A DNA stretch of 6,831 bases, taken from positions 1-6,831 of the IMG/VR virus record IMGVR_UViG_2565956635_000006, one strand, 5' to 3'. The notes under the pieces are model-generated. The model searched no databases. It was not told where the DNA came from and saw nothing but the letters and a program-made list of their open reading frames with translations. Positions 1 to 6,831 of this stretch are shown here, piece by piece; the first letter of the stretch is position 1, and the number at the start of each line of letters is the position of its first letter. The stretch is from a virus. Lineage: Duplodnaviria; Heunggongvirae; Uroviricota; Caudoviricetes. The translations under genes and the position numbers were made by a program.

Positions 1-516
1 ATGAAATTTAAAAAATGTCTTCTGCCTGTGGCAATGTTAGCGTCATTCACTCTGGCAGGATGCCAGTCAAATGCTGATGATCATGCTGCCGATGTTTATC
101 AAACCGATCAACTGAATACCAAACAAGAAACTAAAACCGTTAATATTATTTCCATTCTTCCCGCAAAAGTTGCCGTAGACAACGCCCAAAATAAACGGAA
201 CGCACAAGCCTTCGGCGCGCTTATTGGCGCTGTCGCTGGCGGTGTTATCGGCCACAACGTCGGGTCTGGCAGCAATTCCGGAACGACGGCAGGTGCAGTT
301 GGCGGCGGAGCTGTAGGCGCGGCAGCGGGTTCGATGGTGAATGATAAAACCTTAGTGGAAGGTGTTTCTTTAACATATAAGGAAGGCACCAAAGTGTATA
401 CCTCCACCCAGGTGGGTAAAGAGTGCCAGTTTACGACAGGTTTAGCCGTTGTTATTACCACGACGTATAACGAAACGCGTATTCAGCCAAATACCAAATG
501 TCCTGAAAAGAGCTAA
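1..516 (+). CDS. Outer-membrane lipoprotein with glycine-zipper domain (YcfJ / Rick_17kDa_Anti-like), 171 aa
   Basis: ATG at window position 1, stop TAA 514-516. Signal peptide MKFKKCLLPVAMLASFTLAG|C with lipobox LAGC; residue after the Cys is Gln, not Asp, so outer-membrane sorting is expected. Gly/Ala zipper GALIGAVAGGVIGHNVGSGS...GAVGGGAVGAAAGS resembles the GAVAGGVIGH motif of YcfJ-type lipoproteins (from memory). Upstream RBS lies outside the window. Confidence 0.7.
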   Translation: MKFKKCLLPVAMLASFTLAGCQSNADDHAADVYQTDQLNTKQETKTVNIISILPAKVAVDNAQNKRNAQAFGALIGAVAGGVIGHNVGSGSNSGTTAGAVGGGAVGAAAGSMVNDKTLVEGVSLTYKEGTKVYTSTQVGKECQFTTGLAVVITTTYNETRIQPNTKCPEKS

Positions 517-531
517 TAATCAGGAGGAGTC

Positions 532-1071
532 ATGAAGAAAGTTTTTCTTTGCGCCATCTTAGCCTCCTTAAGCTATCCGGCTATCGCCTCATCATTGCAG
601 GATCAACTCTCGGCTGTCGCAGAAGCGGAACAGCAAGGTAAAAATGAAGAGCAAAGGCAGCATGACGAATGGGTCGCGGAGCGCAACAGGGAAATCCAGC
701 AAGAGAAGCAACGTCGCGCAAACGCCCAGGCCGCGGCTAATAAAAGAGCGGCAACGGCAGCGGCGAATAAGAAAGCTCGTCAGGATAAACTGGACGCCGA
801 AGCCACTGCGGACAAAAAACGCGATCAAAGTTATGAAGATGAGCTACGCAGCTTAGAGATTCAGAAACAAAAACTGGCGCTGGCGAAAGAAGAAGCCCGC
901 GTCAAGCGCGAAAACGAATTTATCGATCAGGAACTGAAGCACAAAGCTGCGCAAACCGATGTGGTGCAATCTGAAGCTGACGCAAACAGAAATATGACTG
1001 AAGGCGGTCGCGATCTGATGAAAAGCGTGGGTAAAGCAGAAGAGAACAAATCGGACAGCTGGTTTAACTAA
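532..1071 (+). CDS. Secreted/periplasmic coiled-coil protein, Ala/Lys/Glu/Gln-rich (TolA domain II-like composition), 179 aa
   Basis: Consensus SD AGGAGG at 522-527, 4 nt before ATG 532; only 15 nt after the upstream stop, so it is operonic with the lipoprotein. Sec signal peptide MKKVFLCAILASLSYPAIA|SS (AxA cleavage site). The mature part is highly charged with AAANK(R/K)A-type repeats. Family unknown. Confidence 0.65.
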   Translation: MKKVFLCAILASLSYPAIASSLQDQLSAVAEAEQQGKNEEQRQHDEWVAERNREIQQEKQRRANAQAAANKRAATAAANKKARQDKLDAEATADKKRDQSYEDELRSLEIQKQKLALAKEEARVKRENEFIDQELKHKAAQTDVVQSEADANRNMTEGGRDLMKSVGKAEENKSDSWFN

Positions 1072-1140: not shown

Positions 1141-1266
1141 TTCATTCATAGTGCAGGGTTCAAATCATTCCCACTCAATTATTTACGACATACATAACCA
1201 ATTGACTGATAACAACTTTCTGCAGCCTGATTTTCACCGTACCGTTTTATATACCGTCACCAAAAA

Positions 1267-3079: not shown

Positions 3080-3253
3080 GTTTTCCACCGTTTATATGCA
3101 TAACAACCTCCTGAACAGTAAAGCATTACGCATGATAAACCATTTATGGTTTTTTGTTACTTTAACATCGTCAATTCCCTGTTTTTCATGCCGAGAATAA
3201 AGCTCACCTTTTACATGACTCTGAAGAAACAAACAGTGAAGATCAGGTTGAAT

Positions 3254-3276
3254 ACCGCACCATTTAATGGCGCGGT
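3254..3276 (-). other. Stem-loop just after the stop of the small membrane gene (possible weak terminator or RNA stability element)
   Basis: Minus-strand ACCGCGCCAT-TAA-ATGGTGCGGT: 10-bp stem with one G-U wobble and a 3-nt loop, 6 nt after the TGA at 3284-3282. No U-tract follows, so it is not a canonical intrinsic terminator. Confidence 0.25.
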
Positions 3277-3281
3277 AGCAG

Positions 3282-3566
3282 TCAAATAGAGAAATAAACA
3301 CAAAAACAAAAAACAACAGGAACAGCAAAATCCAACAGACTTCCCACATCCCACACGCGTGGATCAAAACCTCCCCACCACGGCATGTTGATGCGTTTCC
3401 CTTTCCCAAACTTTTCTATCCAGCGATATTCTGCCTGGGTGTGTTCACGCGCAATGAAGAACGTACAACCGGCTATCGCACCGTAAGCCCAGTTTCCGGT
3501 AGAAAGGCCAACCAGTATCTGCGCAATAACCGCGCATACTGCATGTGTTATTGGTGTTGTATCCAT
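3282..3566 (-). CDS. Small integral membrane protein of unknown function (2 predicted TM), 94 aa, immediately downstream of the tailspike
   Basis: Start ATG 3566-3564 with SD AAGGA (AAAAGGATAAAAATATG); the track's start at 3602 abuts the tailspike stop and lacks an SD. TM1 AVCAVIAQILVGLSTGNWAYGAIAGCTFFIA, basic/aromatic loop REHTQAEYRWIEKFGKGKRINMPWWGGFDPRVW, TM2 LLDFAVPVVFCFCVYFSI. A weak hairpin follows the stop (see 3254-3276). Confidence 0.5.
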   Translation of the reverse strand: MDTTPITHAVCAVIAQILVGLSTGNWAYGAIAGCTFFIAREHTQAEYRWIEKFGKGKRINMPWWGGFDPRVWDVGSLLDFAVPVVFCFCVYFSI

Positions 3567-3602
3567 ATTTTTATCCTTTTTTAATTTAGCAAATTGATAC
3601 AA

Positions 3603-6377
3603 TTACACTCCTGATACTTCAATAGATAGTTGAATCTTATTTGGCATCTTGTTGCTTAAATATATGGTTGCAAAGTCAAACGAAATATTTAAGTTATTTT
3701 CATCACCATCATTATCTGAAAGAACTCCGGTTTTCAATACAACATTTTGCTTATTAATTTCTTTTAAAGGAGAAAAATCAGATCGGTCACCACGATGAAT
3801 AATAACACCAACTGCAATTACCCCATGAATATCAAGTATGTCGTGCATATCAAGGCGAACACATGGTACGTATCCACCAACAAGGATACTTGTAGATTTG
3901 TTGGCTTCAAGTGTTATTAGATATTTTCCGTCTGGTTGAACTATTGTTCCTGCTATTCCATCTGGCGTGTTGAACATACCGCAGTATCTGTATCCTGCTC
4001 CAACAGGAACAATTCTGTTACCGCCAAGATCATGGAAATTTCGAACAATTATTGCACCAGGAACAGATGAATAAACCATTACTGCCTCTGTTTGCCCTGA
4101 TACAGAGTCTGATGTTTCTGGGTTCGCCATGCATAAATTACCACCAAAATAAATATTTTGGATTAGAGGGGTGAGGCCATCATTAACCTCAAAACGTAAA
4201 AAGCCCTTGAGAACAGTCCTTGCGGTATTATTCTTAATAACAACAGGAAGTTCTTTATAGTAAGAGTTTCTGTCTGTCTGTGCCAGAGTTGTTTCAATAA
4301 AAACAAGAGGTCTGTGATTACGTTGAGTTGCATTCACAGGTTTGTACCTCAAGTTGTATGGCAAAGACATCTCAGTAAAACCATCAATATAATTACAGTT
4401 CTGAATCGTGAACCCACCACCACTATATCTTACAAAAAAAGGAGCCGGGCCGCTAAATCCCCTGACGTTCATTCCATCATACACTTCATTTAATCCGCGT
4501 ATTACACCAGCATAATACAAATTGACTGAATTGCCGCCTGTAAAAGTTGTTTCGTATGATGGGCCGTGTCCACCGCAACATGAATTTCTTGTATCGCCAT
4601 CAGGGAAAAATTTAACTCCATCATATGCAGTTCCACCACCCATCATCGTTGGATTTATAATGTTATTATACAGTGATACCATTTGAGTCCCGCTTACATC
4701 AAGCCCCCTCCTGCAAGCAAATGCTGTCATATCCACGACTGTGCAATAGCTGCTATTGTATATTTCAACACCATAACCAGTGCCGTTTGTTAAATCATAT
4801 GCACGGTTTGAGTATTCAATATATGGTTCTATTATTTTCGTTCTGTAGCTTGACTCAAGAAAAATTCCAGTTTCTGAAAAGCCGATTAGTTTTATTCCTT
4901 CTATATGCATATCAACAGCGCCATCTATCACAAGACCACGGAACCCCAAATCACCAGGAGATGCGTTCTGCGTGACAGGTCTTTCAAAATTGAAATCACC
5001 GACAATTCTGCCGTAGCATGGTTTTCTTTTATATATATTTGCCTTTCTTGTGATTTTAAACTCGTCTCCAACAGATGGTTTAAACGGGAATGGTCCCTGA
5101 GCATATTCAAATTTTGCTGTTTTAGTGTCGTAATCCCAATGAGTTATGTATCTTGATATTCCGGCGTTAGCTCCGGTGACACCTGTTACTTTTACCTGAT
5201 TGTATTGTTTTGTTAATGTTGCATCATTACCAAATGAGAATTCACCTCCGGATACAGATGCTGTTACGGTCGTTGAGTAATCATTGCTCGCAGAGTAGAA
5301 AAAATAAAATGCACCTGATATCTCCGCTTTTTTTGTTGCATTATCAAAAGCAGTAACAACATGCATTTCACCTTCACAAGCCTGTCCTCTATTATCTGTC
5401 TGAATTAAGCGATTGCCATGAATCATAATTATATCGCCTGCATCAACAGAATATGCTGAGTTAATTGATATTGATGTGTCACCAGGATTTATTGTTGAAT
5501 TATAGTCAATTGGCGTGGCATCTCCACCTTCGAGTCTTATGAAATAATCATCAATCCAGTTTGGACCAAGAGGCTCTTTTGCGGTTGACTTTAAGACAAC
5601 CTTGCCATCAGCTACCCAGTCATAGTTATAATTATCCCCGCCGCATTTTATGCGGCTAATCAAATACACACCAGAATCCCACTTCAGGCGTTTTCCGTTA
5701 GATGCGCAGTAAATGATGGCATTTGTTATTGCGTCTGTATCGTCAGTAATGCCATCCCCTTTTGCACCAAAATCGCGAACATTGACGATATCCCGCATCT
5801 TATCCTGGAACGTTCGATATACTGCCCCAAAACCATACTGAATAAACCAACCAAAACCACCAACAACCCCGGCGATTGCAGCATCGACATAATTACGCAT
5901 TGAGCGATTATTTACAGCATCCTGCTCAAGTGATGGATCTGCAAGGTTAGAAATTCTGTTTTGCTTTGCATCGTAATATTTTGCAAGCAAAGATGGTTTC
6001 ATCAATGCACGTCTGAACCACCCAAAACATCGCTGGATCAGCATCGTCAGGTAGTCAAATGCATCCTCATGAACTTCGGGGAAAAATTTTCCCTGATTGC
6101 GAAGATCAGTCTCCTGCACCACATCAAGCACACGCTCTATCGTGATTTTCCAGCCAGCAGCAAGCGGCGACGGAAGAACAACAGAACCGCCACTATAAGT
6201 GCCCGCCCCAGTTACCGTATAACCGGTATCCAGAACCAATTCTGTTACGTTACCGTTCAGGTCAGACACCTGAACAACCAGGTCTGTTTTTTTGAAAATG
6301 CGGAAGGTATACGGAAATGATGTCGTAACGCCGTTACCTGTGTATTCGTTGTGGTCAACTTCGGTTGAGACCGTCAT
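3603..6377 (-). CDS. Phage tailspike protein: conserved N-terminal particle-binding domain plus right-handed beta-helix (pectate-lyase-like) polysaccharide depolymerase / receptor-binding domain, 924 aa
   Basis: ATG 6377-6375 with SD GGAG 7 nt upstream (TCTGGAGATTTAACATG); stop TAA 3605-3603. N-terminus MTVSTEVDHNEYTGNGVTTSFPYTFRIFKKTDLVVQV...ETDLRNQGKFFPEVHEDAFDYLTMLIQR matches, from memory, the conserved head-binding domain of epsilon15/phiV10-type tailspikes. Residues about 199-222 (NVRDFGAKGDGITDDTDAITNAI) are the classic pectate-lyase-superfamily motif. Marked GC drop in the C-terminal two thirds. Confidence 0.9.
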   Translation of the reverse strand: MTVSTEVDHNEYTGNGVTTSFPYTFRIFKKTDLVVQVSDLNGNVTELVLDTGYTVTGAGTYSGGSVVLPSPLAAGWKITIERVLDVVQETDLRNQGKFFPEVHEDAFDYLTMLIQRCFGWFRRALMKPSLLAKYYDAKQNRISNLADPSLEQDAVNNRSMRNYVDAAIAGVVGGFGWFIQYGFGAVYRTFQDKMRDIVNVRDFGAKGDGITDDTDAITNAIIYCASNGKRLKWDSGVYLISRIKCGGDNYNYDWVADGKVVLKSTAKEPLGPNWIDDYFIRLEGGDATPIDYNSTINPGDTSISINSAYSVDAGDIIMIHGNRLIQTDNRGQACEGEMHVVTAFDNATKKAEISGAFYFFYSASNDYSTTVTASVSGGEFSFGNDATLTKQYNQVKVTGVTGANAGISRYITHWDYDTKTAKFEYAQGPFPFKPSVGDEFKITRKANIYKRKPCYGRIVGDFNFERPVTQNASPGDLGFRGLVIDGAVDMHIEGIKLIGFSETGIFLESSYRTKIIEPYIEYSNRAYDLTNGTGYGVEIYNSSYCTVVDMTAFACRRGLDVSGTQMVSLYNNIINPTMMGGGTAYDGVKFFPDGDTRNSCCGGHGPSYETTFTGGNSVNLYYAGVIRGLNEVYDGMNVRGFSGPAPFFVRYSGGGFTIQNCNYIDGFTEMSLPYNLRYKPVNATQRNHRPLVFIETTLAQTDRNSYYKELPVVIKNNTARTVLKGFLRFEVNDGLTPLIQNIYFGGNLCMANPETSDSVSGQTEAVMVYSSVPGAIIVRNFHDLGGNRIVPVGAGYRYCGMFNTPDGIAGTIVQPDGKYLITLEANKSTSILVGGYVPCVRLDMHDILDIHGVIAVGVIIHRGDRSDFSPLKEINKQNVVLKTGVLSDNDGDENNLNISFDFATIYLSNKMPNKIQLSIEVSGV

Positions 6378-6480
6378 GTTAAATCTCCAGATAGTCGCAG
6401 CACCCGTTGCGCCGCATATCTGGTTATTCTATTACCTGAAAAACCACATATGGATAGAAATACTGTGAATATAAATAGAT

Positions 6481-6497
6481 ATTACCTTTTAGGTAAT
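6481..6497. promoter_or_regulatory. Perfect palindrome ATTACCT-TTT-AGGTAAT, candidate operator for a phage-encoded dimeric regulator
   Basis: 7-bp inverted arms with a 3-nt spacer in the divergent intergenic region. The half-site ATTACCT recurs at 6431-6437. Function is inferred from symmetry only. Confidence 0.3.
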
Positions 6498-6533
6498 TTG
6501 CAAAACGTGCTGGATAGCAAACAAATTATTTGA

Positions 6534-6553
6534 TACTGTATAAATATACAGTT
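6534..6553. promoter_or_regulatory. LexA binding site (SOS box) overlapping the promoter region of the downstream plus-strand small ORF
   Basis: TACTGTATAAATATACAGTT is CTGT-N8-ACAG with an AT-rich spacer and matches the E. coli consensus TACTGTATATATATACAGTA at 18 of 20 positions. It lies 20 bp upstream of ATG 6574 and overlaps a TATAAAT -10-like hexamer (6539-6545), with TTGATA (6530-6535) just upstream. Confidence 0.7.
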
Positions 6554-6573
6554 ATTGCATGGAGAAGATTAAG

Positions 6574-6831
6574 ATGCAGCAGTATCACTATCCACTGGAA
6601 GACGGATTTACCGAAAGGATTCACACGCCGGGAGGCGTCAAGTCACTGGTGGAGGGATCGCACTTGATGAAATTACTCCGGGATCTCGATAAGGATGGAT
6701 TTAATGTCGATGGCCCACTTGCCGAACTGACTGCACTGATTAACTACGTCACCAGCTCACAGATGTCTATGCAGGATCTGCAAACACATCTCGACTATTG
6801 TGCCGAACAATTACGAAAACAAACCACATAA
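6574..6831 (+). CDS. Small acidic soluble protein of unknown family, predicted SOS/LexA-regulated (85 aa; 90 aa if started at 6559)
   Basis: SD GGAG at 6561-6564, 9 nt before ATG 6574; the alternative ATG at 6559 has no SD. Stop TAA 6829-6831 is the last triplet of the window. No TM or signal peptide; rich in D/E. I recognise no family; the C-terminal ...LRKQTT weakly echoes P22 Mnt (...LYKKTT) but the N-terminus lacks a ribbon-helix-helix motif. Confidence 0.55.
   Translation: MQQYHYPLEDGFTERIHTPGGVKSLVEGSHLMKLLRDLDKDGFNVDGPLAELTALINYVTSSQMSMQDLQTHLDYCAEQLRKQTT

Follow-up and report, generated by a model that had tools for sequence, protein, structure and literature searches.

A LexA-gated SPC32H-type antirepressor gene, annotated as hypothetical, predicted beside the tailspike gene of an Escherichia coli Uetakevirus prophage

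Does the short open reading frame that stands divergent from the tailspike gene in this piece of phage DNA encode a trigger of prophage induction held in check by host LexA, and if so, is this trigger a new one? The question was raised by a preliminary description of the window (the whole stretch of DNA that was analysed, 6,831 nucleotides), which had noticed a LexA-like palindrome in front of a small acidic ORF and had proposed a LexA-repressed antirepressor, or another SOS-induced effector, by which the prophage could respond to SOS with no repressor of the RecA-cleavable kind. The features that bear on the answer are collected in Table 1.

Table 1. Coordinates of the features discussed in the text (positions in the window)
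Feature	Position	Strand	Basis or remark
yfgH (host)	1-516		
yfgI (host)	532-1071		
att core ATTGAGTGGGAATGATT	1163-1179	-	prophage/chromosome junction; exact match to published core
Tailspike gene, 924 aa	3603-6377	-	divergent neighbour of ant; ORF list, E. coli annotation
Perfect palindrome ATTACCT-TTT-AGGTAAT, core TTACC-N5-GGTAA	6481-6497	.	probable operator of Rep or of a Cro-like regulator
Candidate ant promoter: -35 TGGATA (6511-6516), 17-nt spacer, extended -10 TGaTACTGT (6531-6539)	6511-6539	+	by eye
Alternative ant promoter: -35 TTGATA (6530-6535), -10 TATTGC (6553-6558)	6530-6558	+	by eye
LexA (SOS) box TACTGTATAAATATACAGTT	6534-6553	.	predicted operator of the ant promoter; score, alignment, conservation
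Shine-Dalgarno GGAG	6561-6564	+	9 nt before the ATG; read from the sequence
ant, SPC32H-type antirepressor, 85 aa	6574-6831	+	identity to SPC32H Ant; match to PDB 5D50 chain E

The window opens in host DNA. The att core is the one that PMC9782041 gives as the attP/attB core of phiV10, epsilon15 and vB_EcoP_ZX5, and behind it lie, all on the minus strand, genes for a spanin (DUF2514/Rz-like), an endolysin and a holin, a small membrane-protein ORF and the tailspike gene, whose product is labelled 'glycosyl hydrolase family 28-related protein' in E. coli genomes. Because host genes and an att core are followed here by lysis genes and a tailspike, we read the window as the right end of a Uetakevirus prophage; by its sequence it is an epsilon15/phiV10-like element integrated at the 3' end of guaA, between guaA and yfgI. 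A GC-rich hairpin at about 1116-1139 (AAACCCTCTGT...ACAGAGGGTTTT) resembles a yfgI terminator. A search of annotated phages with blastn returned 35 records, among which the window region was 95-98% identical at the DNA level to the E. coli phages phiV10, TL-2011b, phiv142-3 and vB_EcoP_ZX5, where the small gene is called hypothetical, and about 78% identical to the Salmonella phages SPC32H and SPC32N. A prophage of E. coli HB37 is collinear with the window, 98.4% identical to it and complete from integrase to Rz (about 39.5 kb).

Of the 20 positions of the box, 18 agree with the LexA consensus TACTGTATATATATACAGTA and two do not, as the preliminary description had counted. Not one of 200 dinucleotide-preserving shuffles of the window contained a site with three or fewer mismatches, and the box is the sole perfect CTGT-N8-ACAG in the whole window. 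We scored it with a Berg-von Hippel/Lewis-type heterology index (HI), using a matrix built by ourselves from 25 E. coli LexA boxes of the literature (Lewis 1994; Fernandez de Henestrosa 2000); values from this matrix lie about 1-3 units below the published HIs, and the rank order agrees. On this 25-site matrix the box obtained the low score of 1.87, which falls in the range of dinD, mucAB and umuDC and equals the strongest chromosomal SOS boxes, against 11.2 for the runner-up 20-mer in the window. The best sites of the 200 shuffled windows had a median of 13.8 and a minimum of 7.5. An HI below 15 is the usual working threshold for LexA boxes (PMC11002266), and the site combines such a value with the CTGT-N8-ACAG arms of an E. 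coli LexA operator. This confirmed that 6534-6553 is a near-consensus LexA box. Upstream of it, a second LexA-like site, TACTGTGAATATAAATAGAT at 6461-6480, gave an HI-type score of 11.3, not clearly better than shuffled sequence; its arms are not kept in phiV10 or SPC32H, and we rejected it as a chance match or a degenerate duplicate. The stretch ATACTGTGAATATAAATAGATATT at 6460-6483 repeats the LexA-box region directly but imperfectly (75%), 73 nt 5' of the real box, and is probably non-functional as a second box.

The gene behind the box was examined at the protein level. The stop codon of ant is formed by the last bases of the window, and the product is an acidic protein with a pI of 5.1, 12 acidic and 7 basic residues; with its Shine-Dalgarno motif, the small acidic ORF of the preliminary description is a real gene, separated from the tailspike gene by an intergenic region of 196 nt. 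Aligned over its full length with the Ant protein of phage SPC32H, it shows 87% identity and 95% similarity (E=3e-57). A phmmer search of the PDB matched one sequence, chain E of 5D50, 'Anti-repressor protein', which aligned from residue 3 to 86 with residues 2-85 of the window protein (E=3.8e-47); this entry is a crystal structure of SPC32H Ant bound to its repressor. The suggestion that the protein belonged to no family and might be a new antirepressor has thus to be given up, its counterpart being an antirepressor that is present in the PDB and comes from another phage of this genus, while the regulatory part of the proposal, an antirepressor placed under LexA, is very probably right, as the characterised SPC32H ant is its orthologue. 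In the GenBank record of SPC32H the gene, SPC32H_020, is labelled 'ant: anti-repressor protein' and occupies the same position, divergent from tsp; a small gene divergent from the tailspike gene is found alike in the window, SPC32H, phiV10 and the HB37 prophage. An alignment of six Ant sequences (window, phiV10, SPC32H, Erwinia, a Klebsiella phage and an Enterobacter phage) holds 43 invariant columns. By these comparisons of sequence and position, 6574-6831 is an orthologue of SPC32H ant.

General family databases do not lead to this identification. The protein falls in phrog_450 (E=3.8e-47), a family without assigned function; phrog_1760, 'anti-repressor', is matched weakly and locally over its 50 C-terminal positions (E=4e-7). 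None of the NCBIfam models covers the protein, and Pfam gave no family above cut-off, neither a Bro-N nor an ANT/KilAC domain being found in the Pfam scan; a DUF724 match of 17.7 bits was ignored, the cut-off being 38.4. Since there is no Pfam or NCBIfam family and phrog_450 carries no function, homologues of ant have been labelled 'hypothetical'.

The closest known system is therefore Ant/Rep of Salmonella phage SPC32H (Kim & Ryu 2013, J Virol 87:11775; Kim et al. 2016, PNAS 113:E2480; PDB 5D50, 5D4Z). The two share the genus Uetakevirus, an Ant of nearly the same length (85 aa in the window, 86 in SPC32H) encoded divergently from the tailspike, a LexA box at -39 from the ATG, an upstream palindrome at the same spacing and, taking the equivalent E. 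coli prophage of HB37, an HTH-type Rep homologue without an S24 domain. The window differs in its E. coli host, in integration at guaA, in a Rep that, judged by the HB37 prophage, is only 43% identical and in a gene left unannotated ('hypothetical protein'). The homologues in phiV10 (gp24, PhiV10p24), epsilon15 (gp19), TL-2011b, phiv142-3 and vB_EcoP_ZX5 have the same synteny and the same box position and, unlike SPC32H Ant, are annotated as hypothetical only. The preliminary description had likened the gene to 186 Tum and to the antirepressors of Gifsy- and Fels-2-type prophages. The likeness holds for the regulatory logic and fails for membership, as the protein is an SPC32H-type Ant: 186 Tum and the Gifsy-1, Gifsy-3 and Fels-2 antirepressors (Shearwin 1998; Lemire et al. 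2011, PMC3121763) are also small antirepressors repressed by LexA, acting on a non-cleavable repressor that is inactivated by protein-protein binding, as would be the case in our model of the window. Our comparison of Ant with Tum, GfoA and GfhA covered their description and regulatory logic, and the place of ant beside the tailspike gene differs from the location of these antirepressors. SPC32H Ant is reportedly, according to Kim and Ryu, structurally distinct from those antirepressors of Sipho- and Myoviridae. P22 Ant and the Bro-N/KilAC-type proteins share with the small Ant the name and the inactivation of a repressor by binding, but they are about 200-300 aa long and belong to another domain family; ant of P22, moreover, is controlled by Mnt/Arc and not by LexA. 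Judged by its sequence, the window protein is a member of the SPC32H Ant family and not of the Bro-N/P22 type.

A single-protein search of genome contigs gave 3 loci only and the viral contigs were mostly near-identical copies, and the diversity among the loci compared is that drawn from phage BLAST matches. In some 80-85 related loci the first base of the box precedes the ATG of ant by 39-40 nt, its CTGT/ACAG arms are invariant and its 8-nt spacer varies (ATAAATAT, ATAAACAT, ATATTTAT, ATGTTTAT and GTATTTAT; in phiV10, with a G in the spacer, TACTGTGTATTTATACAGTT). The same invariant arms at the same fixed distance are found in Citrobacter, 'Ca. Erwinia dacicola' and Enterobacter phage BUCT554, while in a Klebsiella phage with an Ant that shares 60% identity with that of the window, the left arm is weakened to ATGT. 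In the alignment of ant upstream regions the window box matches the SPC32H box TACTGTATGTTTATACAGTG column for column and is nearer to the consensus (HI-type 1.9 against 2.9), so that by alignment it is the same operator as that of SPC32H ant. In 458 aligned nt only one position separates SPC32H from SPC32N, a C to A change in the right ACAG arm of the box, which lifts the HI-type score from 2.9 to 6.8. A single-nucleotide mutation of the LexA site is said to cause constitutive Ant synthesis in SPC32N, and we take the C to A change to be this point mutation, described by Kim and Ryu in 2013. By analogy with the SPC32H work, the E. coli box would be bound by LexA and would make the gene SOS-inducible.

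These observations bear on the objection that the box is a chance inverted repeat in AT-rich DNA, or was left behind as the prophage decayed, and that SOS does not regulate the ORF in this host. The intergenic region is indeed AT-rich and a promoter scan was negative, both of which favour such a reading; but it would have to account for the empty shuffles, for an HI-type score of 1.87 and for arms that stay invariant around a variable spacer at a fixed distance in about 85 loci. Decay is, moreover, hard to reconcile with the completeness of the HB37 prophage from int to Rz and with a close relative that is a viable, mitomycin-inducible phage (PMC9782041). We consider this explanation very improbable.

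The negative scan was for a sigma-70 promoter by consensus in 6300-6831, where none was found at its threshold; hence the statement that the box overlaps the -10 is a reading by eye. In the first of the two assignments of Table 1 the extended -10 includes the left arm of the box, and its elements, CTGGATA and TGnTACTGT, are kept in all seven aligned relatives. Both assignments, made by eye as they are, would place the LexA box on the core promoter. The translation start was set at 6574 because an upstream in-frame ATG at 6559, which would give an ORF of 90 aa, is out of frame in phiV10 and SPC32H; that ATG also overlaps the Shine-Dalgarno. The sequence GCATGGAGAAGA is kept in the window, phiV10, SPC32H and Citrobacter braakii, differs slightly in Erwinia and Enterobacter BUCT554 and has diverged in the Klebsiella phage. 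As the box sits in a divergent intergenic region, one might also suppose that it mainly regulates the tailspike gene or late transcription rather than ant. It is, however, 20 nt from the ATG of ant and 157 nt from that of the tailspike gene, the promoter-like elements conserved across it are oriented towards ant, and the box mutation of SPC32H is said, in the abstract of Kim and Ryu, to act via constitutive synthesis of Ant. LexA control of the tailspike gene, a secondary suggestion of the preliminary description, found no support; there is scarcely any likelihood that the tailspike is the main target, and we retain ant as the gene that the box would control.

An antirepressor needs a repressor to act on. 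As the window ends at the stop codon of ant, we examined the Rep protein of the collinear HB37 prophage, a 194-aa HTH protein (9174-9758 of the HB37 prophage locus) that is 43% identical to SPC32H Rep over its full length and matches chain A of PDB 5D50, 'Repressor', with E=3.5e-42. A domain scan of the HB37 protein detected HTH_3 alone, and the Peptidase_S24 self-cleavage domain was found in neither HB37 Rep nor SPC32H Rep, in keeping with repressors whose inactivation calls for an antirepressor. The HTH and the C-terminal, Ant-binding region are still recognisably conserved between the two Reps, and both carry the putative recognition segment NLVNRW. According to passages in PMC9986798, the C-terminal tetramerisation domain of Rep is the Ant-binding domain, and passages there and in PMC9638917 describe how a tetramer of SPC32H Ant binds Rep and releases it from DNA; a passage in PMC7380047 has self-cleavage of LexA lead to Ant synthesis, upon which the repressor is inhibited by Ant. 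For the E. coli version the Ant-Rep interaction would follow by analogy with SPC32H, and the pairing is an assumption, because between the E. coli and the Salmonella phages Rep is 43% identical while Ant is 87% identical. This asymmetry may reflect diversification of Rep for immunity around a constrained Ant-binding surface, or an Ant that is cross-reactive (prophage crosstalk).

In view of the strength of the box, the orthology of Ant, the position of the operator, its conservation and the S24-less Rep of the equivalent prophage, we believe that the locus is very probably a LexA-gated ant trigger of the lysis-lysogeny decision of a Uetakevirus prophage. In an undamaged lysogen, host LexA would occupy the box at the ant core promoter and silence ant. 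On DNA damage, active RecA would promote self-cleavage of LexA, and ant would be expressed, with translation beginning at the ATG at 6574; its 85-aa product would then bind the non-cleavable prophage repressor Rep, and with Rep disabled the lytic promoters would be derepressed and the prophage induced. In vB_EcoP_ZX5, which is 97.8% identical to the window region, mitomycin C raises the titre 100-fold, from 10^7 to 10^9 PFU/mL (PMC9782041).

A different inducer is conceivable all the same. The small Ant may be controlled by LexA and yet be redundant, or have another SOS-induced role, the inducer of E. coli Uetakeviruses being a neighbouring gene of the Bro-N/KilAC type. The divergence of Rep to 43% with Ant held at 87% favours this view. 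Bro-N genes adjoin ant in phiV10, ZX5 and HB37, and overexpression of the Bro-N protein ORF4 of ZX5 lowered lysogeny and repressor transcription and promoted lytic growth (PMC9782041); that study, however, examined the Bro-N gene alone and left the small gene 'hypothetical'. On the other hand, Ant, the LexA box and their spacing are strongly conserved across genera and among the roughly 10% of E. coli genomes that carry them, whereas the Bro-N gene is absent from SPC32H and Enterobacter BUCT554 and varies in position and orientation between relatives, and the preserved HTH and Ant-binding region of Rep also speak against a Bro-N inducer. We regard this possibility as unlikely and keep the small Ant as the probable trigger. 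The Bro-N gene lies at 3269-3964 of ZX5 (small ant at 2696-2953), at 7766-8350 of phiV10 (small ant at 7196-7453) and at 35916-36572 of the HB37 prophage locus. In ZX5 and phiV10 it follows the small ant on the same strand, so that the LexA-controlled promoter could serve both genes; in phiV10 a terminator is annotated between the two.

Furthermore, the intergenic region contains a second palindrome (Table 1). All 85 loci compared have it at the same place, precisely 52 nt upstream of the LexA box and with no more than one mismatch; the arms are conserved and the centre is variable. Palindromes of this kind, 15-17 bp long, occur about a dozen times per phage genome and almost exclusively between genes. 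The HB37 prophage carries 11 perfect copies of the core, 10 of them intergenic in a locus that is about 90% coding, and by a looser pattern 12 copies against 0.07 expected. In the HB37 prophage locus we noted palindromes at positions 3982, 9040, 9102, 9814, 9862 and 10199, and further at 12101, 12163, 18864, 35835, 36844, 36937 and 38056; in SPC32H they lie at 9529, 9605, 9667, 10391, 10408, 10438, 11973 and 12035, three of them between rep and cro and three shortly after rep. Both phages have pairs spaced 62 bp apart, and further copies precede int and the structural operon or lie beside ant. The layout around rep and cro, with its 62-bp pairs, is that expected for operators of Rep or of a Cro-like protein, and the palindrome is probably, by this sequence pattern, an operator of tetrameric Rep or of a Cro-like regulator sharing its sites. 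That the copy in the window in particular is a Rep operator, which would put ant or the divergent tailspike promoter under dual control of LexA and Rep, is a more tentative proposal, and we would not call it likely. If true, Ant, by removing Rep, would bring about more ant, a positive feedback giving a switch-like induction.

The answer to the second half of our question is that the trigger is not new. The SOS-controlled LexA-Ant-Rep switch of Uetakevirus is already known, and as it has been characterised both genetically and structurally, the locus has little value as a discovery; what is new here is an annotation point only. The ant module was found in 529 of 5,426 complete E. coli genomes (about 10%), and among the matches listed, all 24 that had a feature under the match called it 'hypothetical protein'. 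The practical use of the finding is the annotation of ant in E. coli genomes and in phiV10, TL-2011b and related phages. The 2022 study of the 98%-identical E. coli phage ZX5 overlooked the small ant and dealt with a different 'anti-repressor' (PMC9782041). Recognising ant predicts that such E. coli prophages, which include those of avian pathogenic and O157-associated strains, would be SOS-inducible via LexA rather than by cleavage of their repressor.

Two further observations concern the cargo of these prophages. Between the tailspike and the lysis genes, 3092-3602 of the window holds an ORF for a predicted membrane protein of 106 aa (3602 to 3282, minus strand) and AT-rich non-coding DNA, whereas the same slot holds an O-antigen acetylase gene (oac) in phiV10 and SPC32H; in HB37 a hypothetical gene of 285 nt is annotated there. 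The slot in the window is a different, uncharacterised cargo or serotype-conversion slot. In the best E. coli match, NZ_CP063046.1 (3815188-3825335, 99.0%), the window is found in two pieces over 10.1 kb, and this prophage has an insertion of about 3.3 kb with genes for a response regulator and an AAA family ATPase, perhaps a moron or a defence-type element.
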